Shown here one piece after another: positions 9,406 to 63,200 of a DNA stretch of 64,000 nucleotides. Below the pieces are notes generated by a model. That model had not been told where the DNA came from. It did not search any database and was given only the letters and a program-made list of their open reading frames with translations. Within the stretch, counting starts at the first letter, position 1, and each line of letters opens with the position of its first letter. Source of the DNA: Minisyncoccota bacterium (GTDB taxonomy: Bacteria; Patescibacteriota; Minisyncoccia; Phycocordibacterales; UBA2100); assembly GCA_036517335.1 (NCBI GenBank), contig DATDWX010000027.1, forward strand, positions 24,192-88,191, given 5' to 3'. A program made the translations under genes and the position numbers.

Positions 9406-9435
9406 GCTGGGCAGTATACTGCATACTCTTCGTCA

Positions 9436-16160: not shown

Positions 16161-16182
16161 GGCTTTTTGGGGTACTCTGCCG

Positions 16183-17750: not shown

Positions 17751-17758
17751 GGGCAGAT

Positions 17759-44392: not shown

Positions 44393-45359
44393 AGGAATTG
44401 TCATCGGGTGCGGCAAGATCGGAGCATTGCTCGAAGCCAATGAAAAACGACCGAGGCCTCGCACACACGCGAGCGCGCTCACAGTGAATCCAAAAACCTC
44501 ACTCGCAGCTCTCGTTGACACCAACCCCGAGAATCTTAAACAAGCGAGTGCATTATTTCCTGGCGTTCCAACCCTTAGCGATCTCAAAGAGGTGCTCGCA
44601 CGAGTGAGGCCCGATATTGCAATCGTCGCAACCAATCCTGCAAGCCACGCCTTGATCGTGGAGCAGTGTGTGAAGAGTGGCGTGCCGATTATCATCGGTG
44701 AAAAGCCGCTCGCAGATTCTCTCGAAAATGCGCAGCGAATTCGACAGGCGATAAGGAAAAGCGGCGCGACCTTTGCACTCAACTATCAGCGGCGCTATTT
44801 CCCTCTTTTTGCGCATGCGAAGAAGCGCCTTGCAGCAGATGAGATTGGACGCATCCACACGATCGAGTGCCGCTATGATAATGGGCTTTTCAACAACGGC
44901 GGCCACGCGATCGACAGCATGCAATTTCTCATTGGGAATCGCATAGCCCATGTCTCGGGTACGGTGAATGCCCGCAACCCGACCTATCCGGAGAGCGATC
45001 CGAATATCGACGGTGAGGGAATGATGCAGAACGGCGTGCAGATTTTCTTCAAAAGTTTCGATCAAAAGATTTCACCGATCCATGAGCTGCACGTTTCGGG
45101 CGAAAATGGATCGCTTCACGTACTCGATTACGGGTATAGCTTTGAGTGGAGCGACACATCGGGCAAAACAACCCGCTCTGAACGAGACGAGGTCAGCATG
45201 ACTGCGGGCGCCTTGGAGGACGCCCTCGACGCATATGAGAAGAAACGATCTCCACTAAGCGGCACTCCCAACGGGATCGAAACACTCACGGTTCTTGAGG
45301 CGTTTTCCGAGAGCGCGAAACACAATGGCAAGCGAGTTGAAGTTGCGTATACTGGGTAA
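44385..45359 (+). CDS. Gfo/Idh/MocA-family oxidoreductase
   Basis: MYKGIVIGCGKIGA Rossmann N-terminus, and EKPLADSLENAQ. Start at the internal Met overlapping the neuB stop. Confidence 0.65.
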   Translation: MYKGIVIGCGKIGALLEANEKRPRPRTHASALTVNPKTSLAALVDTNPENLKQASALFPGVPTLSDLKEVLARVRPDIAIVATNPASHALIVEQCVKSGVPIIIGEKPLADSLENAQRIRQAIRKSGATFALNYQRRYFPLFAHAKKRLAADEIGRIHTIECRYDNGLFNNGGHAIDSMQFLIGNRIAHVSGTVNARNPTYPESDPNIDGEGMMQNGVQIFFKSFDQKISPIHELHVSGENGSLHVLDYGYSFEWSDTSGKTTRSERDEVSMTAGALEDALDAYEKKRSPLSGTPNGIETLTVLEAFSESAKHNGKRVEVAYTG

Positions 45360-45360
45360 T

Positions 45361-46647
45361 ATGCAAACACGGAGGGCAGTTCTTGCGATCAACGGCGGCA
45401 AACCCGTTTTCAACGGGAAGCTTCCGGAGATACACAATCATGACCGAAAGGAAGTGGCCGCTGCTACACGCGTCATTATGCACGGTCCGCTCTCGGGATT
45501 CGTCGGGGTGGCGGGGAAGCGTTTCCTTGGCGGAAGGGAGGTGCGCGCGCTTGAAGCGTCATTCGCAAAAAAGTTCAAAGTGAAGCATGCGGTGTCCTTC
45601 AATTCGGCGACCACTGCGCTGCATGCCGCCATTGTCGCGCTCGAGATCGGACCGGGCGATGAGGTGATCGTGCCGCCATATTCGATGTCGGCTTCTGCTA
45701 CCGCAATTCTTGCGAATGGCGCCGTGCCGATATTTGCGGATATCGACGAGCGCACGTTTTGTATCGACCCCAAGTCCGTTCGGCGGCGCATCACAAAAAA
45801 CACGAAGGCGATCATGGTCGTTAATCTCTATGGGCAAGCCGCGGATTTCACCGAGCTTTTGCAAATAGCCAAACAACGCAAACTCAAGCTCATTGAAGAC
45901 AACGCGCAATCGCCCGGCGCGAAATGGAAGGGGAAATTTGCGGGCACCATCGGCGACGTAGGTGTTTTTAGCTTCAACGTCCACAAGACAATGCAGACAG
46001 GCGAGGGCGGCATGCTCGTGACCAACAGCGCGCGCGCAGCACAGCGCGCGCAGCTCTGTCGCAATCACGGGGAAGCGGTCGTAGATCAGATGCCCCAGTA
46101 CGATGCTGGCCCGATTTTTGGTAGCAACTATCGCATGACAGAGCTCATCGCGGCGATCGCTCGTATCCAGATCACCCGCCTCGATCACCTGACCAGAAAG
46201 CGCCAGGCACTCGCCGCGCATCTCACAAAGAGGCTCGCAAAAATTCCGGGTATTACGCCGCCTTTCGTCCATCCAGGCAACACACATGTCTACTACCGCT
46301 ACACAATCAAAGTAAATCCAAAGATCCTCGGTATTTCACGCGATACACTCGCAGAGGCGATGGCAGCCGAGGGATTCCCCATTTCTAAGGGCTACGTGAG
46401 GCCAATCCATCTCCTACCGGTCTTCCAATCCCGCCGAGCGTTCAACAATACTGAATTTCCGTTCAAGAATAGCTACTACGACGGCAACCCTGATTATTCC
46501 AAAGGGACATGCCCGGTGGTGGAGCGATTGGAAGAGCAAGAGATCACACTCACTGACATCTGTCAGCACCCAAATACAAAAAAGCATACTGATCTCTTTG
46601 TACAAGCGCTCCTGAAAGTGCTCGCACACAAAGATGAACTCCGCTAA
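45361..46647 (+). CDS. DegT/DnrJ/EryC1-family sugar aminotransferase (PseC/LegC-like)
   Basis: FSFNVHKTMQTGEGGML, the PLP-Lys motif. Start at MQTRRAVLAINGGKPVF, immediately after the preceding stop. Confidence 0.7.
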   Translation: MQTRRAVLAINGGKPVFNGKLPEIHNHDRKEVAAATRVIMHGPLSGFVGVAGKRFLGGREVRALEASFAKKFKVKHAVSFNSATTALHAAIVALEIGPGDEVIVPPYSMSASATAILANGAVPIFADIDERTFCIDPKSVRRRITKNTKAIMVVNLYGQAADFTELLQIAKQRKLKLIEDNAQSPGAKWKGKFAGTIGDVGVFSFNVHKTMQTGEGGMLVTNSARAAQRAQLCRNHGEAVVDQMPQYDAGPIFGSNYRMTELIAAIARIQITRLDHLTRKRQALAAHLTKRLAKIPGITPPFVHPGNTHVYYRYTIKVNPKILGISRDTLAEAMAAEGFPISKGYVRPIHLLPVFQSRRAFNNTEFPFKNSYYDGNPDYSKGTCPVVERLEEQEITLTDICQHPNTKKHTDLFVQALLKVLAHKDELR

Positions 46648-47695
46648 AAAGATCTTGTTCAGCGCCAACGACCCGGGCGGGTGGAATGCCATCCTACCGG
46701 TCGTGCGCGCACTCGTTGAAAGAGGCGACGTCGCGCAAGGTATTCTAACCGGCCCCGCCCTCGATCAATTTCGTTCTCTTGACTCCTCATCCCAATACTT
46801 CGTTATAAAACGAAGTATTGGGATCATCGATGGCGCGCAATTTTCTGACAATGATCTTGCGCGAGAGATTGCAGCATTCAAACCGGATGTGTATCTCGCC
46901 GCTTCCTCTATTGGAAATTCTATAGACAAACGGATATTCAAATTATTGAGAAATATCACATCCGTGTACGTGGTGGATTTTTGGTCGCACTACGCGCACC
47001 GATTCGTAGAGAAGCAGCAAGACTTACGTCACATGCCCACGCGCATCTGCGTCATCGATGAGCGGATGAAAAAGATGATGCTCGAAGAGAGATTTCCGGA
47101 AGAGCGCATCACGATTACGGGCAATCCACATTTTGATCATTTTGCCGATGCCATCACAAGCGACCACGAAGATAACACCCGCGCCGTATTTATTTCGCAA
47201 CCCATCAAGCAGGATAAAAAGCACGCAGGGTATGCCGACCGAGGGTTCGACGAGTTTGGAACATTCGAAAGCGTCATCCGCTGCCTGCCCGATGATCTGC
47301 ATCTTTCAATACGCCTTCATCCGCGCGAGAAGCGAGCAAAGTTCAACGCATACCTGAATGATCGGATCACGGTGGGAGACGAAGCAACATTGGAAGAAGC
47401 GCTCTCGAAAGCCGGACTCGTCATCGGCATGTTCAGCCCTGTTCTCATGCAATCCGCGCTCGCGGGCAAACCAACCATCAGCTACCAGCCGGGCAATGCC
47501 GAAGATCCCTTGCCGACCAACCCAGTCGGTATCACCAAGCTTGCGAGGAACGAGAGCGAATTGCGAGCACTCATAAAAAAATATCAAGACTGGCAATTTC
47601 CAAAATCGAAGGAAAAAGTCGAGAATATCTGGCCCAAAGGCGCGACAGAGCGCGTTGTCGCCGTCATTGATGAGATAATCACAGGCAAGGTATGA
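46634..47695 (+). CDS. GT28-C/PseG-like UDP-sugar hydrolase or glycosyltransferase
   Basis: Weak resemblance of the C-terminal GLVIGMFSPVLMQSALAGKPTISYQP to MurG/PseG C-domains. Placement inside the nonulosonic acid cassette supports the call. Confidence 0.35.
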   Translation: MNSAKKILFSANDPGGWNAILPVVRALVERGDVAQGILTGPALDQFRSLDSSSQYFVIKRSIGIIDGAQFSDNDLAREIAAFKPDVYLAASSIGNSIDKRIFKLLRNITSVYVVDFWSHYAHRFVEKQQDLRHMPTRICVIDERMKKMMLEERFPEERITITGNPHFDHFADAITSDHEDNTRAVFISQPIKQDKKHAGYADRGFDEFGTFESVIRCLPDDLHLSIRLHPREKRAKFNAYLNDRITVGDEATLEEALSKAGLVIGMFSPVLMQSALAGKPTISYQPGNAEDPLPTNPVGITKLARNESELRALIKKYQDWQFPKSKEKVENIWPKGATERVVAVIDEIITGKV

Positions 47696-48450
47696 TTGAC
47701 GGAAAGAAAGTAGTGGCGACGATTGAGGGGCGGATGACTTCTTCTCGCTTGCCGGGGAAGATACTGCTGCCCCTCTCGGGGAGGCCGGTGATGGCTCATA
47801 TGATCGAACGGCATCGGAGAAGCAAACTTGTTGATGCAGTGGTGGTGGCGACGACTACGAATGCAAGCGATGACCCTGTCGTTGCTTTGTGCGAGGAAAT
47901 GAAGTGCGCCTACTTTCGCGGCAGCGAGAACGATGTGTTTGCGCGCGTGGCGGGGGCAGGGGAGAAATACGGCGCGGAATTTTTGCTGCAAGGCATGGCT
48001 GACTGTCCGCTGGTGGATCATCGGCATATGGATATATGCCTTACGTTGCTCGCAAGCTCGGGCGCCGATGTGGCTGGCAACGAATATCCTGTGACGTTCC
48101 CGCTCGGCTTCAACGTGCGTGCATACAAATTTTCTACATTCAGAAAAGCCGAGCAAGAAGACACCGACCCCGCCTATCGTGAACACGCGGGCTACTCCAT
48201 CCGCTCACAACCGGAGAAATTCAGAGTGGTAAATTGGGAAGCGCAAGGGAGGATGCGCTGGCCCTCTCTTCGTCTCACGCTCGATACTCCAGAGGATTAC
48301 ACACTTATTTCGGCTGTATACGATGCGCTATATCCGAAGAACTCTGACTTCTCCGCAGAAGACGTCGTACAGTTTTTACGGGGACGGCCTGACTTGGTCG
48401 CACTCAACAGCGAGATCAAACAAAAAGTACCGAAGCTCGAACGGGGCTAG
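47692..48450 (+). CDS. neuA: acylneuraminate (nonulosonate) cytidylyltransferase, NeuA/PseF/LegF-like
   Basis: VVATIEGRMTSSRLPGKILLPLSGRPVMAHMIER is the CMP-sugar synthetase N-terminus, with SpsF-like CTP_transf_3 architecture. Confidence 0.7.
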   Translation: MIDGKKVVATIEGRMTSSRLPGKILLPLSGRPVMAHMIERHRRSKLVDAVVVATTTNASDDPVVALCEEMKCAYFRGSENDVFARVAGAGEKYGAEFLLQGMADCPLVDHRHMDICLTLLASSGADVAGNEYPVTFPLGFNVRAYKFSTFRKAEQEDTDPAYREHAGYSIRSQPEKFRVVNWEAQGRMRWPSLRLTLDTPEDYTLISAVYDALYPKNSDFSAEDVVQFLRGRPDLVALNSEIKQKVPKLERG

Positions 48451-50572: not shown

Positions 50573-52015
50573 ATGAAATGGTCTGAGCGTGTCTCCACTG
50601 ATTACGCTGTCGTCGCAATTCTTGTTGCGATCGCGCTCTGCGCTCGTTTCTTGTCGTTTGGCTACCTCTCCTCACTTGCGGATATACGTCCGGCAGCATA
50701 TCCCTACCCGATCATTCAGGGGGACTCCATGCGTTATGCGGAGTGGGCGGACAACCTTATCACCTACCATGCGTATCAAGACAATGCGGGGTTGCCGCTA
50801 CGCTCGGTACCACCGGCGTACCCGGGACTGCTCGCTGTGTCAAAGGCGCTCACCGGAAGTTTTGCGCCGCTTGTCTTCATGCAAATACTTTTTGCCGCGC
50901 TAGCGGTCGCTCTCATATACAAAATGGCGCGCACGCTCCTCCCCGTACCGTACGCGGTGGTACCCGCGATCGTTTACGCCCTAGACCCTATGGCCGTTTT
51001 TACCGATTCGGCCGCGCTGACTGACGGGTTATTTAGCGCACTTCTTGTATGCGTCGTCTATCTCACGTTTTTTCAATTGTTCACGCGCGGAAGGGAATTG
51101 GTGCGGTGGGGCTTGATTGGCCTCTTGCTTGGCGTCCTCACTATGATCCGGCCTATCGCGCAATTCCTCGTTGTAGTGTTTCCAGCTATGTACCTGGTGC
51201 GCACATGGATGGATGGACATCAGAGCGACAGCTCTCGCTTGAAGATGATTGCTGTCTGCGCTCTGGCGTTTGCACTCGTTGTTGTCCCGTGGATGGTGCG
51301 CAACAAAATCGTCCACGACTCATTCGAAATATCCATCATCGGCACGCATAATCTCCTGACCAACAACGTAAAAGGTTTTCTCGGGTGGCGAGCGTTTGCA
51401 GAAAGTGGGCACCCTATGCCAGCGATTCTCGCCATGCGGCATTTTGGGGACCCCGTCTTCGAAGCAGTCGAGGAGCGTATTGCGGGGGATTTGGCACGGG
51501 CGACGCCTCCGGGCAAAAGCTACGTGAGCTACGAAGGCGGCCTCGCTATCAATTACATCTTCCACGATCCGATACGATACGCGTATTTTCATGGCGTAAA
51601 TACAATACCGTTCTTCCTCTCAAGTAGCATCGCGTCCTACGGACAGATCGTGCGGCAACTGCGCGACAACGAGGGTTTCTCTGAGTCTGTAACGCTCTCA
51701 CTCCTAGGTACGCTCGGAGAACTTAGGCATCCTTCAAACTTCCATGCGTGGGCCCTCGCCCTGTGGTCGCTCGCGCCCAAGGCGCTCGAGATCTCATGGT
51801 GGTTGCTGGTCGCGCTCTTGGCGCTAATCGCGCTCGTGCTGCGACGCCGTGATAGCACAATACTGTTGTGTGCGGTACTGGTGCTTTATTTCGCCGTGCT
51901 GACGGGCCCAATGTCGAATTCGCGATACCGTATTCCAGCAGAGCCGTATTTGGTGATGCTCGCTGCGGCCGGTGCTCACACTCTCATCGAGCGGCTGAAG
52001 AAACGATCGTCATGA
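50573..52015 (+). CDS. GT-C-fold polytopic membrane glycosyltransferase (GT39/GT83, ArnT/PMT-like)
   Basis: 480 aa with about 11 TM helices. The N-terminal loop carries the acidic/aromatic motif (QGDSMRYAEWADN). It is followed by a DPM1-like GT2. Confidence 0.5.
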   Translation: MKWSERVSTDYAVVAILVAIALCARFLSFGYLSSLADIRPAAYPYPIIQGDSMRYAEWADNLITYHAYQDNAGLPLRSVPPAYPGLLAVSKALTGSFAPLVFMQILFAALAVALIYKMARTLLPVPYAVVPAIVYALDPMAVFTDSAALTDGLFSALLVCVVYLTFFQLFTRGRELVRWGLIGLLLGVLTMIRPIAQFLVVVFPAMYLVRTWMDGHQSDSSRLKMIAVCALAFALVVVPWMVRNKIVHDSFEISIIGTHNLLTNNVKGFLGWRAFAESGHPMPAILAMRHFGDPVFEAVEERIAGDLARATPPGKSYVSYEGGLAINYIFHDPIRYAYFHGVNTIPFFLSSSIASYGQIVRQLRDNEGFSESVTLSLLGTLGELRHPSNFHAWALALWSLAPKALEISWWLLVALLALIALVLRRRDSTILLCAVLVLYFAVLTGPMSNSRYRIPAEPYLVMLAAAGAHTLIERLKKRSS

Positions 52016-52018
52016 AAA

Positions 52019-52726
52019 TTGACCATGAAAATTGAACTGTGCATTCCCGCGTTCAATGAAGAGAGAGTCATTGCAGAGTCCGCTATGCGGGTGCGGGACG
52101 CGCTCCGAACGATCTCATCTGATTCCCGCGTGACCGTTGTCTCCAACGCCTCGACCGACGTGACGGCGGCGCGCGCTGGCAGTGTGGAAGGTATACATGT
52201 CCTCCAGATCAAGGAACGCGGTAAAGGCGCGGCGATTGTTGCCGCAGCGCGAGAATCTCACACTGATTTTTTTGGCTTTATTGATGCCGATCTTTCCGCC
52301 GACCCATCTGATATCACCGTTCTTTTCCGCGCACTTGAGCGGGGAGAATGTGATATTGCGATCGGATCACGACTGATGGACACTGGTATGGTCGAGCGCA
52401 CTTGGATGCGCACCATGAGCTCGCGTGCTTTCAACATGCTTCGGAAATTGCTGCTCGGCATCTCCGCCCAAGACTCTCAATGCGGCCTCAAGCTGATGAA
52501 TGAGAGAGGGCGGAGCATTCTTGCTTCATGCCAAGAGACCGGATGGTTTTTGGATATGGAGCTGCTTTTTTGCGCGGAGCGCGCGGGATTGCGCGTCCAC
52601 GAAATACCGATCCATTGGAACGAGCAGCGATATGAAGGTCGGGCGAGCAAATTGCGCGTCATGAGAGATGGTATCGGCGCGCTCACGGCTATGATGCGGA
52701 TACGTCGGCGATATATGGGACAATAG
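52019..52726 (+). CDS. family 2 glycosyltransferase (polyprenyl-phosphate sugar synthase-like, soluble)
   Basis: LCIPAFNEERVI, FIDADLSADP, QCGLKLM. Confidence 0.7.
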   Translation: MTMKIELCIPAFNEERVIAESAMRVRDALRTISSDSRVTVVSNASTDVTAARAGSVEGIHVLQIKERGKGAAIVAAARESHTDFFGFIDADLSADPSDITVLFRALERGECDIAIGSRLMDTGMVERTWMRTMSSRAFNMLRKLLLGISAQDSQCGLKLMNERGRSILASCQETGWFLDMELLFCAERAGLRVHEIPIHWNEQRYEGRASKLRVMRDGIGALTAMMRIRRRYMGQ

Positions 52727-52731
52727 CATCT

Positions 52732-53436
52732 ATGATGGACCGCGGAGCGTTTGATTTACTCGATAAATTAGAGCGTACCTGGTGGTACCGTGGACGCAGC
52801 GAATCCGTGAGATCGGCACTTCTTCGTACGCACAGCGTACAGACAGAGGCGGTGCTTGATTTTGGCGCCGGGTTTGGCGGAATGTACGATACACTTGCCC
52901 GCTTCGGTACGCATATAGATGCGCTTGAGCCGGATGACGAAGCGAGGGTTGCAGCGAAGGCGCGGGGATATAGGCGCGTCTTTGCCTCAGACGCTGAAGT
53001 ATTCGCCACGCACTACGATCTCATAGGACTCTTCGATGTCGTGGAACACATCGAGCGAGATGGCGATTTCCTCGTGCGCATGCGCGAAGCGCTCAAAGAA
53101 GGAGGACGTCTCGCAATTACAGTACCGGCATTTCCATTTCTCTGGAGTATCCACGATGTTTCCCACGGTCATTTTAGAAGATATACAAAAGCTTCCCTGC
53201 GCGCTGTTGTGGAGGCATCAGGATATACCGTTGAATACATGAGCTACTGGAATATGAGCCTTTTTTTTCCCGCCGCCGCGCTGCGGCTACTTGGAAGGAG
53301 CGGAGAGAGTGCCGCATCTCTACCACGATGGCTCGATAACCTCTTTTTTGCAATTGTCAAAATAGAATCGAGCATCATGCGATTTGTACCGTTTCCTTTC
53401 GGAACGGGTCTTGTGGTGATCGCTCGGAGAAAATAG
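52732..53436 (+). CDS. class I SAM-dependent methyltransferase
   Basis: VLDFGAGFGGM motif I, and LKEGGRLAITVP. Confidence 0.65.
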   Translation: MMDRGAFDLLDKLERTWWYRGRSESVRSALLRTHSVQTEAVLDFGAGFGGMYDTLARFGTHIDALEPDDEARVAAKARGYRRVFASDAEVFATHYDLIGLFDVVEHIERDGDFLVRMREALKEGGRLAITVPAFPFLWSIHDVSHGHFRRYTKASLRAVVEASGYTVEYMSYWNMSLFFPAAALRLLGRSGESAASLPRWLDNLFFAIVKIESSIMRFVPFPFGTGLVVIARRK

Positions 53437-53514: not shown

Positions 53515-53631
53515 ATCCCGTTAGAGGCCGCGGTCGCTCAGCGAATATCATTTACATGCATGTGGTCGAAATTACAAGAACGTCTAATCGCAGCTTGCGG
53601 GTAGCAGACCGCGACCTGCCTCTAACGGGAT
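53515..53631 (+). repeat. MITE-like, gene-less derivative of the GIY-YIG element (TIRs ATCCCGTTAGAGGC / GCCTCTAACGGGAT), encoding only a 40-aa ORF MNPVR...LPLTG
   Basis: It has the same 12-bp termini and the same ATGA / GGGATGAAATT junction context as 35632-35910. Its stop TGA overlaps the ATG of the downstream gene. Confidence 0.6.
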
Positions 53632-55909
53632 GAAATTTCTTGAGCAGACATTGCGCTCTATCGTCTTGTGTGGCGTTTTTGCCCTCCCAGTGGTCGCGCT
53701 TATCGTCGCCAACGAGCTTTTCTTCCCTTACATTACGGGCAAAAATTTTGCCTTCCGGATCATTGTCGAGATCATCACGGGCGCGTGGCTCGCCCTTGCG
53801 CTCGTCGTACCGAAGTGGCGCCCACGGCGCAGCTGGATTTTGGCGAGCTTTGCACTCTTTATATTCATAATGGCGCTGGCGGATGCGCTGGGCGCGTACC
53901 CGTTTAAGAGTTTTTGGAGCAACTACGAACGCATGGACGGCTTCATAACGATCGCGCATACGTTTGTGTACCTCGTGGTTCTGACCGCCGTGATGCAAAG
54001 CGAAAATCTTTGGCGCCGTTTGTTCCAATGGTCGCTCGTGGTTTCGGTATTTTTGAGCGTGCTCGGATTGCTGCAAGTAGCAGGTGTGCTCGCGCTTGGC
54101 TCCGGCGGCACGGGGCTCACGGGTCGTGTTGATGCGACGTTCGGCAATCCAATCTATTTTGCCGCCTACATGCTCTTCCATGTCTTCATCGGTATTCTGC
54201 TTTGGTATCAGATGTGGCAAGTACGCGGCAAAGGAAATAGACTCACCCCCTCTATATTTTACGGTTTTGTGATCGCGCTTGATACTGTGGCGCTCCTCCT
54301 CACCGGCACACGCGGCACGATGCTCGGCCTCATCGGCGGCGCATTTCTCACGCTCGTACTGCTCTCGATTGTCCCCGAGGCGCGTCGCTTGCGGCAGGTG
54401 ACTGCGATCGCTCTTGTAGCCCTGATCATCGGAGGCGGGGTGTTGTGGTCTGTGCGTGAAAGCGCGTTCATTCAGCGCATCGCTTTTTTGAACCGTCTCG
54501 CCTCGATCTCTCTGACTGACAACACGACGAAAGCACGCTTTTTCAACATGGGTATGGCTTGGCAGGGGGTAAAGGAGCGACCGCTCCTCGGCTGGGGGCA
54601 GGAGAACTACGCGGTCGTTTTCGACAAGTATTACGATCCACGAATGTACGGGCAAGAGCAGTGGTTTGATCGTGTGCACAATATCATCTTTGACTGGTGG
54701 GTTGCAGGAGGTTTTCTCGGACTTCTCGCCTACATCTCTATCTTTGTCGCAGCACTCTGGGCACTGTGGCGACCGAGCGTCGAGCGAGGAAGTACTGAAG
54801 CAAGCATGCTGAATGTGCGCAGAAGTCCTTCGGGTGTGGCGACCTTCACACACCCCGAGCGTAGCATTTTGACCGGACTGCTCGCCGCCTACACGGTGCA
54901 CAACATGACCGTCTTCGACAATGTGACGAGCTACATCCTCTTCGGAACGATTTTGGGCTACATTGCATACCGCGAGGCAGTGGCGCAAAGCGCGCACTCG
55001 ATTTTTGAGAAAGAATTTTTACCACGCGGCGCGCTCTCGATCGTGGCTGCCCTCGCAGCACTCGTCGTGTGGGGAGCAGCGTGGAGTATCAATACACACG
55101 CCTTCGCGGAGAACGAAAAAATCCTTGCCGCGTTGCAGCAGCGATCAGGTGGTCCCGCACAGAATCTCGCACTTTTCAAAGAGGCCATTAGCTACGGTAC
55201 CTATGGCGATCAAGAGGCACGTGAGCAACTCGCGCAGGTAGCAGCGCAGATCGCGGGAGCAGATGTGCCCGCCGACCTCAAAGCGCAATTTCGGGAGACC
55301 GCGGTACACGAACTTGATCTTCAGGCCGCGCAATCGCCCCTCGACGCACGCTTCCCGCTCTTTGCCGCGATGGTGCTTGGCGCGCACGGTGATTACGCCG
55401 CTGCAGCGACAAAATTGGAGCGCGCTCACGAGCTTTCGCCAAAGAAGCAAACGATACTGTTTGAGTTGGCCCAAAATGCAGGGCTGCGCGGCGATGTAAA
55501 CGCATCTCTCCAATATTTCAAGACGGCCTTTGAGCTCGAACCCGAGTATCTAAACGCGCGCATCTACTATGCCTCGGCATTGATCCGTGCGGGCAAAGAT
55601 GCCGACGCAGACGCCGTGCTTGCACCCATCATCCCCACGGGGGAGGCGGCGGACACACACATCACCGGCGCGTACGTTGCTCGCAAACAATTTGGTAAAC
55701 TGATCCCCATCTGGCAGGCGCGCATCGCCGTGTCTCCATCCGACGCGCAGGCGTATTTCACCCTAGCCGCTGCCTACTTCGAGTCTGGTGATACTGCGCA
55801 TGCGATTGCGACACTGGAGAAAGCAGGATCCCTCGACCCGGCCGTGAAAGAGCAGGCAGACAAGTATATTTTGGATATTCGGAGCGGGGTACTTAAGCCG
55901 GGGCAGTAA
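53630..55909 (+). CDS. Wzy_C-family (O-antigen ligase / O-oligosaccharyltransferase-like) membrane protein with C-terminal TPR repeats
   Basis: About 400-aa polytopic N-terminal region with ...GTRGTMLGLIGG... and the periplasmic loop typical of Wzy_C. The C-terminal 300 aa are Ala-rich TPR-like helices. Confidence 0.6.
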   Translation: MKFLEQTLRSIVLCGVFALPVVALIVANELFFPYITGKNFAFRIIVEIITGAWLALALVVPKWRPRRSWILASFALFIFIMALADALGAYPFKSFWSNYERMDGFITIAHTFVYLVVLTAVMQSENLWRRLFQWSLVVSVFLSVLGLLQVAGVLALGSGGTGLTGRVDATFGNPIYFAAYMLFHVFIGILLWYQMWQVRGKGNRLTPSIFYGFVIALDTVALLLTGTRGTMLGLIGGAFLTLVLLSIVPEARRLRQVTAIALVALIIGGGVLWSVRESAFIQRIAFLNRLASISLTDNTTKARFFNMGMAWQGVKERPLLGWGQENYAVVFDKYYDPRMYGQEQWFDRVHNIIFDWWVAGGFLGLLAYISIFVAALWALWRPSVERGSTEASMLNVRRSPSGVATFTHPERSILTGLLAAYTVHNMTVFDNVTSYILFGTILGYIAYREAVAQSAHSIFEKEFLPRGALSIVAALAALVVWGAAWSINTHAFAENEKILAALQQRSGGPAQNLALFKEAISYGTYGDQEAREQLAQVAAQIAGADVPADLKAQFRETAVHELDLQAAQSPLDARFPLFAAMVLGAHGDYAAAATKLERAHELSPKKQTILFELAQNAGLRGDVNASLQYFKTAFELEPEYLNARIYYASALIRAGKDADADAVLAPIIPTGEAADTHITGAYVARKQFGKLIPIWQARIAVSPSDAQAYFTLAAAYFESGDTAHAIATLEKAGSLDPAVKEQADKYILDIRSGVLKPGQ

Positions 55910-57706: not shown

Positions 57707-60202
57707 ATGAGTTTCTGGAGCGGACTTTTTGGGAACGATAATAGTGGTGCCTTGAAGCGGGCGGAGCCTATTATTGCTGCCACAAATGTGCTTGGGGAGG
57801 AGATGCGCGCGCTGTCCGATGAAGCGCTGAAGGCAAAGACTGCTGATTTTAAAGCGCGGTTAGCGACCGGAGAAGGGCTGGACGCGCTCGCACCGGAGGC
57901 CTTCGCTGCCGTACGCGAAGCCTCGCGCCGTACGCTCGGGCAGCGGCACTTCGACGTACAACTCCTTGGCGGCCTCGTGCTTCACCAAGGCAATATCGCC
58001 GAGATGCGCACCGGTGAGGGGAAAACGCTCGTCGCCACCCTCCCGGCATACCTCAACGCGCTCACTGGCGAGGGTGTACACGTGGTGACGGTCAACGACT
58101 ACCTCTCGCGCCGCGATGCGGTGTGGATGGGGCAGATCTACCACGCGCTCGGTATGAGCGTGGGCGTATTGAATCACGAGTCGTCATTTCTTTACGATCC
58201 TTCGCACGTCTCTACCGAATCCCTGGCGCAGGAGGAAGCTTCGGTGGACATCACGGGAAGTTTCAAGGTGATGCACGATTTCTTGCGGCCAGTTTCGCGC
58301 TCTGAAGCCTACGCCGCCGACATTACGTATGGCACCAACAACGAGTTCGGTTTCGACTACCTTCGCGACAATCTAGAATACGAAAGCTCCAGTCTTCGCC
58401 AAGCCCGCGGGTATCATTTTGCTATCGTAGACGAGATCGACTCTATTTTGATAGATGAGGCACGAACGCCTCTCATTATCTCTGCGCCGGTTTCCGACGC
58501 GGGGGCGCTCTACGGCCAATTCGTGCAGATCGCAAACACACTTACGCCAGAAGAGGACTACACGGTTGATGAGAAGCATAAGCAAATATCCCTGACAGAT
58601 GCGGGCATCGAAAAAGCGGAAAAAGCGCTTGGAGTGGAAAATATTTACACCGATGCCGGTATCAAATACGTCCATCATCTCGAAACGGCTGTGCGCGCCA
58701 AGGCGCTCTATGAGCGCGATAAGGCATATGTAGTACGTGACGGGCAGGTGGTGATCGTGGATGAGTTTACCGGTCGCATGCAACCGGGGAGGCGCTGGAG
58801 TGAAGGCCTGCATCAGGCGATCGAGGCCAAAGAAGGTGTAGCCGTGCAGCAGGAATCGCGCACGTTTGCTTCGATTACATTTCAAAATTACTTTCGCCTC
58901 TATGGCAAGCTCGCTGGTATGACGGGCACCGCGGCCACCTCATCGGAAGAGTTTTACAAAGTGTATGGTCTTAATACCGTCATCATTCCCACCAACAAGT
59001 CCCAGGCGCGTGCCGATCGAGATGATCTGATATTTCAGACAGAAGATGGAAAAATGCGCGCTATCGCGAGGAGAGTGAAGGAACTTCACGACAAAGGGCA
59101 ACCAGCACTCGTTGGTACTGCATCAGTTGAGCGCAACGAACTTCTCTCGTCGTACTTTAGACAAGAGGGGATTCCGCATGAAATATTGAATGCCAAGAAT
59201 CACGAACGAGAAGGGGAGATCATCGCACAGGCAGGTCGCAAGAGTGCAGTCACGATCGCGACCAATATGGCAGGCCGTGGCGTCGATATTAAGCTCGGTG
59301 GCAATCCTGGGAGCGATGCGGAGTATGAGGAAGTAAAGAAATTTGGCGGCCTCTTCGTGCTCGGGACGGAGCGGCATGAGGCACGTCGCATAGACAACCA
59401 GCTTCGTGGCCGCTCCGGCCGCCAGGGCGATCCCGGGGAGACGCAATTCTTCGTGTCGCTGGAAGATTCACTCATGCGCGTCTTTGCATCCGACGTCATC
59501 AAGCGCGTGATGGGCACGTTCAAGATCCCAGAAGACGAGCCCATTCACAATTCGATGATCACGCGTGCTCTTGAAAAGGCACAAACTCGCATTGAGGAAT
59601 TAAATTTCGATGCGCGCAAACACGTACTTTCGTACGATGATGTGTTGAACATCCAGCGTCAGAGTATCTATAGTCGACGGCGAACGTTGCTAACGGGTGG
59701 TACTGCCGATATTGACGCCGAGCTTGATCGGATTTTCGCGGAGAAGGGAATAATGGGCGAAATGGGGGAAAGGGGAGAGCAATTCTATGCCGCGACACGT
59801 CGATTTCTTCTGCAAACGATTGATTCACTCTGGGTCGAGCATCTTGAGGCGATGGAATATTTAAGGAGCAGCGTGAATTTGCGTGCGTATGGCCAACGCG
59901 ATCCATTGGTCGAATACAAAAAAGAAGGCCTCAAGTTGTTCCAAGGAATGGAGGAGACATATAAGCTGCATGTGGTGCAAATGCTCCCCAATGTCCTCTC
60001 GGGGGGTATCTCCATGCCACAGGAGAATAGGGTTATCAACAAGGCCGTACAAGTCATCACCGCCGTGAACTCGCCAGCCGCGAAAAGGGAATATGGGCGA
60101 AATGACCGAGTGCGAATTACCAACGGGATCGAGGAGCAGGAGATGAAATACAAAAAAGCCGAATCACTCCTCAAGAGTGGACAATGGCGCATTGTCGTTT
60201 AG
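57707..60202 (+). CDS. secA: preprotein translocase ATPase SecA
   Basis: LHQGNIAEMRTGEGKTLVATLPAYLNALTGEGVHVVTVNDYLSRRDA, and the DEAD-like motor motifs (DEIDSILIDEARTPLIIS). 831 aa. Confidence 0.9.
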   Translation: MSFWSGLFGNDNSGALKRAEPIIAATNVLGEEMRALSDEALKAKTADFKARLATGEGLDALAPEAFAAVREASRRTLGQRHFDVQLLGGLVLHQGNIAEMRTGEGKTLVATLPAYLNALTGEGVHVVTVNDYLSRRDAVWMGQIYHALGMSVGVLNHESSFLYDPSHVSTESLAQEEASVDITGSFKVMHDFLRPVSRSEAYAADITYGTNNEFGFDYLRDNLEYESSSLRQARGYHFAIVDEIDSILIDEARTPLIISAPVSDAGALYGQFVQIANTLTPEEDYTVDEKHKQISLTDAGIEKAEKALGVENIYTDAGIKYVHHLETAVRAKALYERDKAYVVRDGQVVIVDEFTGRMQPGRRWSEGLHQAIEAKEGVAVQQESRTFASITFQNYFRLYGKLAGMTGTAATSSEEFYKVYGLNTVIIPTNKSQARADRDDLIFQTEDGKMRAIARRVKELHDKGQPALVGTASVERNELLSSYFRQEGIPHEILNAKNHEREGEIIAQAGRKSAVTIATNMAGRGVDIKLGGNPGSDAEYEEVKKFGGLFVLGTERHEARRIDNQLRGRSGRQGDPGETQFFVSLEDSLMRVFASDVIKRVMGTFKIPEDEPIHNSMITRALEKAQTRIEELNFDARKHVLSYDDVLNIQRQSIYSRRRTLLTGGTADIDAELDRIFAEKGIMGEMGERGEQFYAATRRFLLQTIDSLWVEHLEAMEYLRSSVNLRAYGQRDPLVEYKKEGLKLFQGMEETYKLHVVQMLPNVLSGGISMPQENRVINKAVQVITAVNSPAAKREYGRNDRVRITNGIEEQEMKYKKAESLLKSGQWRIVV

Positions 60203-63200
60203 AGGATCCGCTGTTGTACTCGTACTCGTGCTATCCTCTGGCGTCGTGGTCGTCTCGGGCTCCGTTGAGCCGCTTGTGGCGGGCGTAGTCGAACTAGTCG
60301 AATCCGTCGTGGTACTCGTGTCCGTCGGTGTGGGATCGAGGGTTGGATCGGTCTGCGGTAAGCTCGTCGAATCCGGTGCCGGGGCGGGGTTTGGGTCTAC
60401 CACTTCCACTGTACGGGTCGTGGTGCCCACATTTCCCGCAGCATCGGTCGCACTGTATTCAATAGTATGTGTGCCTGCCACAGATGTGTCAATCGTTATC
60501 TGGTCGAGCGTGATCGAAGCTCCTCCATCCACCGAAGCGTGGATGCCGAGGTTTTGGTCTATATCGTCGGAAACGCTCGCGCCCAGATCTACATACGAGT
60601 CGCCGACATTAATGGTGGCTGGGTTGTTGCCGTTGACGGAAAGTACCGGTGGGCTGCTTGCACTGTCGCTTGCGGAGCTCGTCACGCTTGTCGGCGTCGT
60701 GGATGCGGAATCGGCGCTGCTCGAGCTGGCAGCCGAGAGCATCGCCTGCAGTTGGGACTTGGTCACGCAGACGTCATCCAAACAGAGTTTTTTGGCAGTA
60801 ATCGTATCAGCGCTGACGTTAACGGCGGTTATATTCTTCGCGAAAAGATCCTCGATGCCATTGGCCGCACTGGCCAACCATTCTGTGATTCGCGAGAAGA
60901 GGCTCTGGATGAAACCTTGCGCGTACAGATCCGCTGTCGAAGTCGCGGAGGTCGAGGTGGCGTCCGTCGTTGTTGCGTTATAACTTAGGGTGTCGGCCAG
61001 GGAGCCGAGGCGCGACGCGATCGCATTCATCATCCCACCGACAAAGTCTAGCGGACCAGCCTGGTTGGTGGACGTGGCGGAAGTCGCGCTGGTGCCAGAT
61101 AGTCCGACAAAGGCATTCGGCCCTAGGAGGACAAACGCGATAGCATTGATATCGGTCCCTTTTTGCAAATTCATAAAGATCATGACCGTCCCTCCGTCTG
61201 CCTGTGGTGAGCCAGTTGAATCCGTCGAACCAGCGTAATTATCTATTGCAATACCCACGGAATCATCGAATGGCCCTGCCTTCTTGCCCACTCCGGGTAC
61301 GCTCGAGACAGCGATCCGATCGCCGATCGCGATCGGCCCGTTCTCCAGGTTGACCTTCACCGGCACACGGCCGGAGAGTGCTATAGGTCGCTCACCTGTC
61401 GCATTTTGATCGCCGAGTACCTGTCCTGGAAGAGTGGAGATGACACCCGCAAGCGGCGCGCCGTCACTTGCGATAGCCAGCTTCATCGAGACGGGGATTC
61501 CCCTGTCAACTGCCACAATATCTCCCGCGCCCATTAGGGGATTGGAAACGGGGAACATTTCCGCATAGTCATTGCCCGCAGCACTCGGGCTCGAGGTCGC
61601 GTAAATAGTGATGACGATGCCGCCGACTGCACCCGCGCCTCCGGCCAATGTGCCAGCCGCACCACCCGCACCACCCGCACCGACGGCAAGTTTACTCGCC
61701 GTAAGAACGGAAGTACTCGCGACGTTTTGCGAATACGCACCACCACCACCAGAGCCTGCAGAATTGCCATTAGCGGCTCTTGGGCCACTACCACCACCGC
61801 CTGGTGATCCCCCTGTGACACCCGCAGTCCCGGGAACGGTCGGCAGTCCAGCGCCGGCACCACCTCTAGGAGAGTCTCCTCCGCCCCGGACAGCGACGCC
61901 GGGGGTGCCGCCCGTTTCGCCCGCCTGACCGTTTAGGTTCACAGAACCTAAGGATGCAGTTCCCCCAGCGCCCCCTGCTCCGACGCCATCACCCAATGTA
62001 CCACCACCACCACCACCTGCCTTAATAAGCGCGCTTGCACACGCGACCGTACCCTGGGCATAACAGCTGGCAGCTCCGGTCGCGCCATTGTTTGTCGCCT
62101 GTGCGCCCCCGCCCCCGCCCCCGCCCCACCCCTCCACCACATAGTACGCGACGTTGCCCTGAAGGGTGAGTGTGCCTGCACTGAAGCTCGGGTTGCTGTT
62201 CCCTGCACCCGTGAACTGCACGGTAGTGGTACCCGCGGTAGATGTCGCATAGATCGCGGAGAGCTTCGTGATGTACCCGATACAGGCGTTGTTGATAGCA
62301 AAGCACCCCTTTGTGATATTTATGCCACCGCTGAATGTCGTCGTAGCCGCAGCGCCAAATGTGATCGCGCCGTTGGGATCGATCGCTATTGCTGCAGTCG
62401 TGGAGGTGGCGGAGTACGAGGAAGTGGCAACATAGAGAGTATTTCCGATATTACGCAGCGTCCATGCATTTGATGACGCAGTGGTATCAACGAGCGCGAG
62501 CTGCGGACCGGTACTTGAAGCGATGGTAAGGGTCCACTTAGGGGTTGTGGTGCCGATGCCGACATTGCCGGAGGAGTCGATAACAAGACGAGTCGCATTT
62601 GTTCCGGCCGTACGATCAGCGATGGCGAACTTGCCGGCTCCGATAGCAGTATTGCCCGATCCTGTACTCAAAATGCTCCAATCACGGCCGTCGTAACTTG
62701 TATTGCCCGTAAAGAGAAGCTGTGGTCCGTTTGTATCTGTGCTTGCGATCACCGCATGGATCGCGTTGCTGTTGTAGCTCACTCCAGCGCTTTGCACGGC
62801 GAATGTCGCGATTGGACTCGTCGTCCCGATGCCGACATTGCCCCCGCTCGTTATGCGGAATTTTTCCGCATCGCTTCCCGCCGAATCTGTTCGTACGACA
62901 AAATCGCCCGTTGTATTGCCGCCGTTGCGGGCGAATCCGATGCCACCAAGACCGAAGCCATCGACGCTGGGGTCAGAGACGTAAAAACGCAGGAGCGGTG
63001 TGAGTCCGTCCGCATTTGCGCCGGTGCTCTTGGCGTAAAGTTCCTGCGAGCGGACGGTACTGTTGGTAATGGTCGTATTGGTCACGAATTGCGCGGCCGT
63101 CACGTCGGTGGCGCTGCTCACGACCAGGGCACGATTCGGCGTCGTCGTGCCGATGCCGACTCTTTTAAGATAGTCAATGCGCATTGCTTCAGATAATGCC

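Follow-up and report, generated by a model that had tools for sequence, protein, structure and literature searches.

A secA-linked Wzy_C protein with a predicted extracytoplasmic TPR arm as a candidate protein O-oligosaccharyltransferase of Patescibacteria

Described Wzy_C and TPR glycosylation enzymes

Membrane protein-glycosylating enzymes with an extracytoplasmic C-terminal TPR domain have already been described, namely WsfB, to which tyrosine O-glycosylation is ascribed, and TfpW, the group IV pilin arabinosyltransferase of P. aeruginosa. The TPR domain of TfpW is periplasmic and has OGT as its best structural match, and an analogous arrangement of a membrane enzyme with a non-cytoplasmic C-terminal TPR occurs, on a GT-C/ArnT-like fold, in the eukaryotic O-mannosyltransferases TMTC1-4. 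WsfB of Paenibacillus alvei is a predicted S-layer O-oligosaccharyltransferase (O-OTase) that joins a C-terminal TPR motif to a Wzy_C domain, and in Geobacillus the TPR protein WsaA is encoded beside WsaB (PMC2943079). The O-OTase PglS has 13 helices, after which a periplasmic domain at the C-terminus shapes a cleft above the active site (PMC12800693). Residues R215, R288 and H338, which are essential in the ligase WaaL, correspond to R224, R298 and H349 of PglL, where they are kept (PMC3643930), and one account postulates that WaaL glycosylates a large adhesin in Aggregatibacter.

Here we describe a related enzyme from a Kaiserbacteria-like Paceibacterota genome of the Patescibacteria, encoded in a window of 64 kb, by which we mean the whole stretch of DNA that was analysed. 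The comparison with the described systems involves three genes:

53630..55909, plus strand: Wzy_C/WaaL-fold enzyme with C-terminal TPR, whole gene, 759 aa (ORF, Pfam, AlphaFold2)
57707..60202, plus strand: secA, conserved downstream neighbour (ORF)
4341-6212: asparagine-synthase homologue, island gene

We propose, with a probability of about 0.5, that the Wzy_C-TPR protein is a WaaL/PglL-type en bloc transferase with which surface glycosylation generally ends in Paceibacteria-type Patescibacteria, and that it is likely a protein O-OTase. Like WsfB, and like WsaB with WsaA in Geobacillus stearothermophilus, it pairs a Wzy_C enzyme with a TPR module, which is fused to the enzyme in WsfB and is a neighbouring protein in the case of WsaA. 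Compared by described architecture, it further resembles WsfB-type systems in being encoded with a surface-glycan locus in a host that lacks, or in the present case probably lacks, an outer membrane, and an asparagine-synthase homologue is present in both (wsfA in the WsfB locus). However, wsfB is monocistronic and lies in a strain-specific locus (PMC2943079), whereas the present gene is a phylum-level core gene fixed beside secA with the variable locus upstream, and no S-layer gene was identified in the present locus.

With PglL, PilO (TfpO) and PglS the protein shares the Wzy_C domain and a common catalytic Arg/Arg/His set, and like PglS it has a helix 13 followed by an outside C-terminal domain, although the domain type differs, being a 7-repeat TPR solenoid here. 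As with PglL-type enzymes, a relaxed donor specificity is suggested, in this case by the variable locus; unlike them, the protein leaves the families PglL_A and Wzy_C_2 unmatched and belongs to a monoderm-type CPR host. Genes for PglL-type enzymes lie outside LPS loci and often beside a pilin or target gene; the present gene is in no LPS locus and has no adjacent pilin gene. TfpW is similar in being polytopic, in using a lipid-linked donor and in having a non-cytoplasmic C-terminal TPR that serves a protein acceptor, as the TPR may do here, with OGT as the best TPR match in both. This likeness is one of analogy and not of homology: TfpW and TMTC1-4 carry a DDX motif in a fold of the GT-C/ArnT type and work stepwise from polyprenyl-phosphate monosaccharides, not en bloc.

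Fold, active site and TPR arm of the Wzy_C-TPR protein

The gene divides into the following parts:

53630..54994, plus strand: WaaL-like 12-helix membrane core, aa 1-455 (Foldseek, PDB profile search, model helices, hydropathy/positive-inside analysis)
54269..54736, plus strand: Pfam Wzy_C domain, aa 214-369, with invariant T227-R228-G229 (R228 = nt 54311-54313)
54455..54682, plus strand: large extracytoplasmic catalytic loop, aa 276-351, with invariant R289, R303, P318, G321, G323 and H350 (alignment; H350 = nt 54677-54679)
55025..55135, plus strand: 13th transmembrane helix, aa 466-502 (model helix; hydrophobic segment 469-487)
55136..55885, plus strand: predicted extracytoplasmic TPR domain, aa 503-752, 14 helices forming 7 repeats (Pfam, model, structural matches)

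Pfam detects Wzy_C at E 1.1e-19 (71.1 bits, gathering cutoff 31.7), and more than one of its TPR families matches within aa ~586-738. The AlphaFold2 model (pLDDT 94.2, pTM 0.92) indicates that the two domains are packed with confidence and puts the 14 TPR helices at aa 508-752, beyond helix 13. The initial annotation, which had called the gene a Wzy_C protein with a C-terminal TPR region, agrees with the ORF, Pfam and the model; its figure of ~300 aa of TPR was slightly generous, the model giving a soluble tail of 272 aa of which ~250 aa are TPR. The protein is 100% identical to the NCBI entry 'O-antigen ligase family protein [Candidatus Paceibacterota bacterium]' and has more than 2400 homologues. 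Wzy_C was matched in 59/59 family members scanned, TPR was likewise present in 59/59 scanned members of the alignment, and nearly all of 150 listed family representatives are 700-800 aa long.

When the membrane domain alone was compared with the PDB using Foldseek, a single significant match was obtained, chain 7tpg_B of WaaL (E 3.1e-6, target-normalised TM 0.67 over 478 columns; next match E 0.05), and a profile search of PDB sequences also found WaaL (7tpg/7tpj, E 8.1e-9). An alignment of 77 family sequences shows no variation at R228, R303 and H350; these residues align to R215, R288 and H338 of E. coli WaaL, and R228 also aligns to the Arg in the 'NGTRGAV' segment of the C. metallidurans enzyme. 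Conservation is highest in the catalytic and other outside loops (57% mean pairwise identity) and lowest in the cytoplasmic loop (11%), and the family has two conserved outside loops of its own, 'FFPYITGKN' and 'SNYERMDG', that are extra relative to WaaL. As judged by model and alignment, the protein has a WaaL/PglL-type fold with the corresponding catalytic residues. WaaL of E. coli K-12 and of C. metallidurans (7TPG/7TPJ) thus resembles it in fold, active-site residues and the large outside loop, but identity is ~15%, helix 13 and a 250-aa TPR are added here, no LPS-core genes lie nearby, and the lipid A-core acceptor is probably absent from the Patescibacteria phylum.

The PglL residues G316 and G318, which follow P313, have been described as kept in PglL and not in WaaL (Schulz et al. 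2013). The equivalent P318-x-x-G321-x-G323 is invariant in the present family and looked PglL-like at first; C. metallidurans WaaL carries the same P-x-x-G-x-G motif, which therefore does not separate PglL from WaaL. PglL_A (PF15864) and Wzy_C_2 (PF11846), whose models derive from proven O-OTases, had no match in the protein at E<=1 and were outside the 25 Pfam families matched most often when 59 members were scanned at that threshold. In the loop equivalent to the PglL_A motif region (H400/E404/P406), the present family carries H424...D430, with a different spacing. For the ligase, the NCBIfam model RfaL (NF012031) gave 24 bits against a cutoff of 277. Sequence cannot tell a WaaL-type ligase from an O-OTase for this enzyme and, with WaaL as the only solved or sequence relative detectable, gives no positive support for the O-OTase. 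The candidate O-OTase proposed initially keeps in its favour the WaaL/PglL fold, the catalytic residues, the predicted outside TPR and the precedents; against it stand the unmatched PglL-specific models and WaaL as sole detectable relative.

These same two observations would suit an enzyme of identical en bloc chemistry with a non-protein acceptor, either a glycolipid or lipoglycan anchor or peptidoglycan ('O-antigen on a monoderm'), whose TPR binds glycan, wall or S-layer, WaaL being a lipid-acceptor ligase. We consider such an acceptor unlikely, though a serious alternative. The RfaL score, far under its cutoff, speaks against it, as does the chain length of the reference enzymes, which stop before helix 13 (E. 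coli WaaL at 419 aa, the 7TPG chain at 403-413 aa) and have no outside C-terminal domain.

The TPR arm itself is predicted, from the model and from hydropathy/positive-inside analysis in which 13 helices precede the TPR and the inside loops are K/R-rich, to lie outside the cell, as does the active site. Its membrane-proximal repeats contain the near-invariant residues E529, E532, P570, R574, S603, P604, K606, Q607 and Y647, indicating that the tail is under selection. The best structural matches of the arm are consensus TPRs and the TPR domains of OGT and SPINDLY, protein glycosyltransferases with substrate-binding TPRs, and no OGT-like asparagine ladder was found among the conserved TPR positions of the family. 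Two features of the arm are consistent with a non-protein acceptor: its best NCBIfam TPR similarities are to PrsT, BcsC and PgaA, which function in polysaccharide secretion (all far under cutoffs), and its conserved polar set fits one invariant acceptor across species.

A core gene beside a variable glycan locus

Upstream of the gene lies a glycan island, whose assignment as a heptose, nonulosonate and methyltransferase locus in the initial annotation was borne out by domain matches and by at least six SAM methyltransferase genes:

15679..18316: nucleotide-heptose genes, comprising a nucleotidyltransferase (minus strand), SIS/GmhA-like, PfkB kinase and HAD/GmhB-like genes (domain matches)
33736..35631, plus strand: MsbA/HepA/PglK-like ABC exporter, candidate flippase for the lipid-linked glycan (Pfam ABC_membrane and ABC_tran)
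42291..48450, plus strand: nonulosonic-acid (Pse/Leg-type) genes, comprising PseB-like, NeuB, oxidoreductase, DegT aminotransferase, unknown and CMP-transferase genes (domain matches)

The Wzy_C-TPR gene had been counted as part of this island, which its distribution contradicts. The family spans no fewer than 588 species genomes and 2010 clusters of 50% identity. In 43/48 related loci (~90%) secA follows on the same strand within 6 kb, and it is likewise the downstream neighbour in all five loci looked up singly. Divergence of the Wzy_C-TPR protein tracks that of SecA (Spearman rho 0.83, n=52), with membrane-domain identity of 37-68% across lineages, whereas 12 upstream glycan genes each recur in just 0-10 of 30 loci, against 28 of 30 for SecA, and the glycan clusters of relatives are entirely different in content (five loci looked up). 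The gene is not island cargo: it belongs to the core genome, is inherited vertically and flanks a variable island. A conserved core gene adjoining a highly variable sugar-synthesis locus probably provides the step that attaches the variable surface sugars, and the variable donor locus together with SecA-like divergence is what one would expect of en bloc transfer by an enzyme of relaxed donor specificity and not of a Wzy polymerase.

A polymerase nevertheless deserves consideration. Wzy polymerases are polytopic too, some of them belong to Pfam Wzy_C, and they act with Wzx on Und-PP-glycans at the outer face of the membrane. The Wzy_C-TPR protein would then elongate Wzx-flipped Und-PP repeat units, with the TPR as a chain-length or partner module and another enzyme (e.g. 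LCP) attaching the polymer. Wzy and WaaL have been treated together (PMC4594306), the PDB title of 7TPG reads 'polysaccharide polymerase/ligase', and TfpW has been proposed to polymerise as well as transfer. A divergently transcribed Wzx gene is the immediate neighbour within 2.5 kb upstream in 19/70 loci, and in the clusters of two loci (L001 and L003) it has no other Wzy-like protein beside the Wzy_C-TPR protein. However, Wzy polymerases are encoded by poorly conserved cassette genes that vary along with the repeat unit, are specific to one such unit and have a Wzz partner, whereas this TPR-bearing gene keeps its identity across wholly different clusters in step with SecA, and neither a Wzz/GNVR (PCP co-polymerase) domain nor a second Wzy-like protein was found in the scanned ORFs of the 64-kb window. 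The His equivalent to WaaL H338 and PglL H349 is invariant. An ABC exporter of MsbA/PglK type, as encoded here (NCBIfam HepA 324 bits, MsbA 305, PglK 214, all under cutoffs) and within 2.5 kb upstream in 11/70 related loci, suits complete lipid-linked oligosaccharides; a flippase gene of either kind occurs in 30/70. We regard polymerase activity as improbable.

The same data bear on the simplest reading of the database name, an ordinary island-borne O-antigen ligase whose generic TPR tail has no specific role and whose S/T-rich neighbours are coincidental. This reading has the database name in its favour, and promoter and terminator scans found nothing special. The syntenic core position, the near-invariant TPR residues, the TPR in every scanned member and the uniform protein length all argue against it, and lipid A-core, the canonical acceptor, is not expected in the phylum, making this reading very improbable.

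Proposed mechanism and candidate acceptors

In the mechanism that we favour, the variable neighbour locus would build an undecaprenyl-pyrophosphate-linked glycan at the cytoplasmic face, here with heptose, nonulosonic acid and methyl groups, which would be flipped outward by the candidate MsbA/PglK-like ABC exporter or, in many relatives, by a Wzx encoded beside the enzyme. In the 12-helix core, arginines (R228, R289, R303 and others) would bind the pyrophosphate, and H350 would act as catalytic base. Helix 13 would set the 7-repeat TPR arm by the active site on the outside, where the arm may recruit the acceptor; unfolded Ser/Thr-rich stretches in proteins that are secreted or at the cell surface would be the likeliest targets. 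The enzyme would then be a general protein O-OTase like WsfB of Paenibacillus.

By analogy with WsfB, TfpW and the 13-helix O-OTases, a protein is the best reading of the acceptor, which we hold at roughly even odds. Attachment of wall glycopolymers in monoderms is normally carried out by LCP enzymes and not by Wzy_C proteins, which counts against a non-protein acceptor. The Wzy_C or membrane-GT enzymes with TPR that serve as precedents have protein acceptors, predicted for WsfB and shown for pilin in TfpW, and no lipid A or core genes (waa, GT9, Kdo; lpx, kdt) were found in the 64-kb window. For CPR/Patescibacteria an S-layer and a Gram-positive-like envelope have been described, which makes a lipid A-core acceptor unlikely, although the lipid A question was left open (PMC6146748). 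On the other side, core-gene status suits a structural envelope component, and authors speak loosely of LPS or O-antigen on Patescibacteria (PMC6146748; PMC12911398).

Three encoded proteins are candidate acceptors:

20944..29733, plus strand: SpvB/FG-GAP/RHS/Gly_rich_2 protein, 2929 aa, signal peptide (domain matches)
31127..31930, plus strand: acidic S/T-rich protein, 267 aa, signal peptide (S+T 22.5%, D+E 18%)
60164..64000 (ORF 60164-63973), minus strand: surface protein, at least 1269 aa, Bact_surface_Ig-like domain, tail rich in T, S, P and D at the C-terminus

Two giant Thr/Ser/Ala-rich secreted proteins had been described initially. Both are large and S/T-rich (S+T 23.3% and G 15.5% in the 2929-aa protein, S+T 25.5% and A 13.9% in the protein of at least 1269 aa; background S+T 14%), and the first has a signal peptide, but the ORF of the second is still open at the window edge, leaving its N-terminus beyond and its secretion only putative. 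The acidic Thr/Ser-rich secreted protein was as described; it had no match in Pfam or NCBIfam. The link drawn from the enzyme to the giant proteins is one of adjacency and is circumstantial: the S/T-rich windows of the 2929-aa protein are YD-repeat (RHS) sequence and not mucin-like linkers, and just one of 85 related loci has a homologue, partial at 86 aa, of the 267-aa protein. Both proteins stay candidates by proximity. The best candidate is the surface protein of at least 1269 aa, which has homologues at the equivalent position in four related loci (L003, L030, L031 and L036). Large S/T-rich ORFs lie 6-9 kb downstream in ~20/27 of the closest loci and are rare near the gene in more distant relatives. 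A pilin gene was found in one of 85 related loci and in none of the window's ORFs.

More speculatively, and in our view doubtful, the enzyme could be a core general O-OTase working at or near the Sec translocon, loading any locus-made glycan onto emerging unfolded Ser/Thr-rich proteins. On that reading, the surface of these ultra-small monoderm symbionts would bear a functional counterpart of O-antigen that is anchored on protein, and phage and host interactions would drive its variation at strain level.

A further set of genes, not considered in the initial annotation, lies directly upstream of the Wzy_C-TPR gene:

50573..53436, plus strand: PMT_2 GT-C glycosyltransferase (480 aa), AglJ/DPM1-like GT2 (235 aa) and SAM methyltransferase (Pfam, NCBIfam)

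The PMT_2 GT-C enzyme and the GT2, which resembles polyprenyl-phosphate-sugar synthases, are candidates for a second route of glycosylation outside the membrane, and the trio recurs, whole or in part, upstream of the Wzy_C-TPR gene in a few relatives (L012, L022 and L005/L006).

Family, predicted fold and active site

The plus-strand ORF at 53630-55909 encodes a protein of 759 aa in which Pfam detects Wzy_C at residues 214-369 (E 1.1e-19, 71 bits against a cutoff of 31.7) and many TPR families over residues ~586-738, confirming the position and domain content given in the initial annotation. A protein database search returned more than 2400 homologues of this plus-strand product, among them an NCBI entry of a Candidatus Paceibacterota MAG with 100% identity. 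The antisense ORF on the minus strand (53552-54997, 481 aa), with an R/H-rich, low-complexity translation, was rejected as a shadow ORF. All of the best 120 homologues match over their full length (93-100% coverage, 53-70% identity, 696-810 aa), contain Wzy_C and TPRs, and, where the source is named, belong to Kaiserbacteria, Parcubacteria or 'Patescibacteria group' genomes. When the membrane domain alone was searched exhaustively, 2010 clusters of 50% identity were represented at E<=1e-30; of 150 listed representatives, almost every one is 700-800 aa long. In a scan of one genome per species, at least 588 genomes encode a relative; the top 80 matches are all Patescibacteria (Kaiser-, Campbell-, Lloyd-, Yonath-, Taylor- and Nomurabacteria) and include a complete 752-kb genome (CP011215). 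Databases already name such proteins 'O-antigen ligase/TPR repeat protein'.

An AlphaFold2 model of the full-length protein, built on 77 family members, reached a pLDDT of 94.2 and a pTM of 0.92, with a sole disordered segment (residues 386-402), and has the following layout:

Residues 2-274: helices 1-9
Residues 276-351: helical outside loop
Residues 352-380: helix 10
Residues 408-452: helices 11 and 12
Residues 466-502: helix 13, long
After helix 13, to residue 752: TPR arm of 14 helices, equal to seven TPRs

Hydropathy and the positive-inside rule place the short K/R-rich loops (61-69, 194-208 and 249-256) in the cytoplasm, and loop 276-351 and the TPR tail outside; the catalytic loop and the TPR arm are predicted to share one side of the membrane, the extracytoplasmic one.

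Searches of the PDB with the full-length protein or profile, by Foldseek and by sequence, returned TPR proteins only, a swamping that was avoided with a separate model of residues 1-500 (pLDDT 92.6) and a profile of the membrane domain. By Foldseek, this model had one significant PDB match, the O-antigen ligase WaaL of C. metallidurans (7TPG; E 3.1e-6, TM 0.67 normalised to WaaL, 15% identity; next match at E 0.05). The same WaaL was also matched by sequence with the membrane-domain profile (E 8.1e-9), and the family aligned with E. coli K-12 WaaL in hhalign (E 4.7e-4); residues 1-500 as a single-sequence phmmer query gave no match in the PDB. In both sequence alignments, the family-invariant R228, R303 and H350 fall on WaaL R215, R288 and H338, three residues important for WaaL that are conserved in PglL as R224, R298 and H349 (Schulz et al., PMC3643930). 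Within the family, conservation peaks in the outside loop (57% mean pairwise identity), is lowest in a cytoplasmic loop (11%) and averages 28% in the TPR domain, where the membrane-proximal repeats hold a near-invariant polar cluster (E529, E532, R574, S603, P604, K606, Q607 and Y647). On the strength of the WaaL fold match, the retained catalytic residues and this conservation pattern, we predict that the protein is very probably an active WaaL/PglL-type transferase.

A core gene beside secA and its probable donor glycan locus

In five relatives inspected singly, the Wzy_C-TPR gene is the final gene of a glycan-biosynthesis cluster whose content is different each time: some clusters contain GT4s, UDP-glucose dehydrogenase, a deacetylase and Wzx, one contains rhamnose-type epimerases and reductases, and others contain NeuB sets. 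The gene is then followed by 0-2 small variable genes, secA and usually gatB. Of 48 loci with enough flank, 43 have secA on the same strand and no more than 6 kb downstream (median gap 1.65 kb); gatB and an HTH_17 gene usually come after it in the related loci. Identity to the query correlates with SecA identity both for the membrane domain (Spearman 0.83, n=52) and for the TPR domain (Spearman 0.81), whereas the 12 genes directly upstream in the window each have a homologue in only 0-10 of 30 loci with at least 9 kb of flank on both sides, against 28 of 30 for SecA. This synteny, the divergence that tracks SecA and the poor recurrence of the upstream genes identify a vertically inherited core gene rather than island cargo; together with secA it makes up the conserved border of a hypervariable glycan locus. 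Its earlier description as a gene of the island was not borne out. The synteny may be functional, or it may be mere ancestral gene order; one recent paper on O-OTases raises the speculation that these enzymes work at the Sec translocon.

The heptose, nonulosonate and methylation genes previously ascribed to the island were recovered, the last as at least six SAM methyltransferases, alongside several GT4 and GT2 transferases. Features of the island discussed here are:

4341-6212 (-): AsnB-type glutamine amidotransferase, 623 aa, within the glycan island
9085-10518 (+): GDP-mannose-dehydratase ORF
15679-18316: nucleotide-heptose genes
40865-42298 (+): DUF218-epimerase fusion
42291-48450: nonulosonic-acid set (PseB-like, 324 bits; NeuB, 274 bits; DegT, 317 bits; CMP-transferase)

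The AsnB-type protein, probably a sugar-amidating enzyme, parallels wsfA, the asparagine-synthase homologue of the P. alvei S-layer glycosylation locus. In the GDP-mannose-dehydratase ORF, ~120 extra N-terminal residues run over the opposite-strand gene 7723-9405, and the real start probably lies further in, since the Pfam match begins only at aa 123. The island fills the larger part of the 64-kb window; in comparison, the one complete genome found for a relative (CP011215) measures just 0.75 Mb.

The scanned ORFs of the window yielded no initiating phosphoglycosyltransferase (Bac_transf/PglC- or WecA/MraY-type), and those of the >50-kb island (1-53436) neither Wzx nor Wzz; within the island the sole candidate flippase is an MsbA/HepA/PglK-like ABC exporter at 33736-35631, 18 kb upstream of the Wzy_C-TPR gene. 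In 30 of 70 loci, a recognisable gene for a lipid-linked-glycan flippase stands no more than 2.5 kb upstream: 19 loci have a divergent Wzx and 11 an MsbA/PglK-like ABC exporter. This count is probably too low, given Wzx divergence.

A conserved enzyme beside ever-changing donor glycans points to a ligase or oligosaccharyltransferase with relaxed donor specificity, such as WaaL, PglL and PilO. Wzy polymerases are exchanged together with their repeat unit. The third-ranked reading, in which the protein is a polymerase that bears TPRs, therefore runs opposite to what is seen here, where the protein is conserved while the donor loci vary; neither a Wzz domain nor a second Wzy-like protein was present among the scanned ORFs of the window, and we regard this reading as improbable. 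We favour, with a probability of about 0.85, an en bloc transferase that acts outside the membrane on lipid-linked glycan from the adjacent locus.

The acceptor and known systems

For this transferase, the leading reading is a protein O-oligosaccharyltransferase, which we hold at even odds. The initial annotation had proposed such an enzyme, and its enzyme class and a plausible protein acceptor both withstood analysis; sequence leaves the acceptor undecided, with architecture and precedent favouring protein. Among known systems, the nearest in kind is the Wzy_C-TPR O-OTase of Gram-positive S-layer glycosylation, of which WsfB is the type; the PglL/PglS O-OTases and WaaL come next. WsfB of Paenibacillus alvei, predicted to be an S-layer O-OTase, is described with a Wzy_C domain and a C-terminal TPR motif, and in Geobacillus the TPR protein WsaA is encoded beside WsaB (PMC2943079). 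Characterised O-OTases have a 13-helix core and a C-terminal periplasmic domain, which shapes a cleft over the active site (PglS, PMC12800693). WaaL chains (403-419 aa) end after the core, whereas the Wzy_C-TPR protein continues into helix 13 and the TPR arm. In structure comparison this arm matches OGT and SPINDLY well; no OGT-like asparagine ladder was found among the conserved TPR positions of the family. The pilin glycosyltransferase TfpW, which has an experimentally supported periplasmic C-terminal TPR with OGT as its best structural match, differs from our protein in fold, the TPR arm resembling OGT in both. For Aggregatibacter it has been postulated that a WaaL glycosylates a large adhesin, and CPR cells have been described with a Gram-positive-like envelope and an S-layer, a point that is not closed (PMC6146748).

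The second-ranked alternative is a ligase that transfers the glycan to a non-protein envelope acceptor. TPRs also serve polysaccharide-export machines, which weakens the case for a protein acceptor, as do the missing asparagine ladder and the lack of a nearby pilin gene. Sequence models decide in neither direction: PglL_A (PF15864) and Wzy_C_2 (PF11846) have no Pfam match in the protein, and at E<=1 both fall outside the 25 families matched most often by 59 family members, while RfaL of NCBIfam reaches 24 bits where its cutoff is 277. The large outside loop had been suggested as a means of telling PglL from WaaL, and Schulz et al. (PMC3643930) count G316/G318 as PglL-specific. The discrimination fails: the invariant P318-x-x-G321-x-G323 recurs as 'EHPWTGVGVGQF' in the solved C. 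metallidurans WaaL, and we therefore dropped this motif as evidence for a PglL-type enzyme. Overall, we rate the non-protein acceptor as rather unlikely, and retain the protein O-oligosaccharyltransferase as the leading reading.

Among possible substrates of such an enzyme, the Ser/Thr-richness reported for the neighbouring proteins was confirmed against a background of 14% Ser+Thr, with qualifications. The 2929-aa protein (20944-29733; signal peptide, 23.3% Ser+Thr) is composed of SpvB, FG-GAP, RHS-repeat and Gly_rich_2 and has two C-terminal TM helices; its S/T-rich windows are YD-repeat sequence, and from its domains it looks toxin-complex/Rhs-like. The next ORF (29767-30303; 29% S+T, YD repeats, a 'HPDHLGS' Rhs-core-like motif) is possibly an orphan Rhs module. 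The minus-strand ORF at 60164-63973, open at the window edge with its N-terminus beyond, encodes at least 1269 aa (25.5% Ser+Thr) that are S/T/A/G-rich, with a Bact_surface_Ig-like domain, a mucin-like T/S/P/D tail and at least two copies of a '(T/S)TGPQLALVDT...' segment (residues ~7-45 and ~487-527). Homologues of up to >1800 aa occupy the equivalent position in the related loci L003, L030, L031 and L036, and large S/T-rich ORFs lie 6-9 kb downstream in ~20 of the 27 closest loci, being rare in distant ones. By proximity, this surface protein is the best acceptor candidate. The secreted protein of 267 aa (31127-31930) is acidic, with 18% D+E, contains 22.5% Ser+Thr and has a region rich in S/T/E at its N-terminal end. 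The specificity for neighbouring giant proteins that the initial annotation implied did not hold, as acceptor candidates are tied to the enzyme by proximity only. As conserved partners, the acidic 267-aa protein, a 385-aa protein encoded downstream and the 2929-aa RHS protein were rejected, with 1, 0 and 2 weak matches in 85 related loci, as was an adjoining pilin of the TfpO/TfpW pattern (none in the window, 1 of 85 loci).

The combination of Wzy_C with C-terminal TPRs is already known, and the advance lies in context and scope: the breadth of the family, its core-gene status, its place beside secA and its role as anchor of a hypervariable surface-glycan locus. Patescibacteria/CPR genomes are rich in 'O-antigen-like' sugar genes, which their phages carry too, and recent work speaks of O-antigen sugar genes, even 'LPS', in these bacteria (PMC12911398). 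CPR cells are thought to be without LPS, although some papers assume it, so the attachment point of their glycans is in question; our literature search found no paper on the Wzy_C-TPR family or on the glycan attachment step in CPR bacteria. The family is likely the common attachment step for Patescibacteria glycans, which reduces the question to a single conserved gene. With a protein acceptor, the family would amount to a very widespread O-glycosylation system of an uncultivated radiation, and could be drawn on for broadly donor-tolerant O-OTases in bioconjugate work; with lipid or cell wall as acceptor, it would define a new envelope glycoconjugate.

Second candidate route and the gap before secA

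Additional polytopic and GT2 proteins are encoded in the window:

1862-3574 (+): a third polytopic protein, orphan, 570 aa
6218-9405 (-): second GT2/polytopic pair, a GT2 (325 aa, two C-terminal TMs) and an unannotated 560-aa 13-TM protein
50573-52015 (+): PMT_2 GT-C enzyme, 480 aa, directly upstream of the Wzy_C-TPR gene
52019-52726 (+): AglJ/DPM1-like GT2, 235 aa, partner of the PMT_2 protein

The PMT_2 protein and its GT2 make up a further candidate system for extracytoplasmic glycosylation, one absent from the initial annotation; each pair joins a GT2 resembling polyprenyl-phosphate-sugar synthases to a polytopic GT-C-like protein. The polytopic orphans at 7723-9405 (-) and 1862-3574 (+) have no Pfam match even at E<=1 and were rejected as a second Wzy or ligase, having no similarity to the family profile. 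One of the two shares a short motif with the PMT_2 protein and, judged by this motif, is more likely GT-C-like. The GT2/polytopic pairs and the orphan could serve in glycan decoration or direct protein glycosylation, outside the membrane.

Scans for promoters/terminators, tRNAs and Rfam families, near the Wzy_C-TPR gene and throughout the window, produced no signal above chance. Between this gene and secA, the segment 55910-57706 is low in GC (0.471 vs 0.53-0.57) and holds a unique, N-terminally anchored 385-aa protein (56497-57654), which has no Pfam or NCBIfam match and no homologue in the 85 related loci. The relatives have different small genes at the same position (PaaX_M, DUF817, tRNA_bind), and in the window the segment also contains a GC-rich hairpin with a perfect 10-bp stem at 56059-56082.
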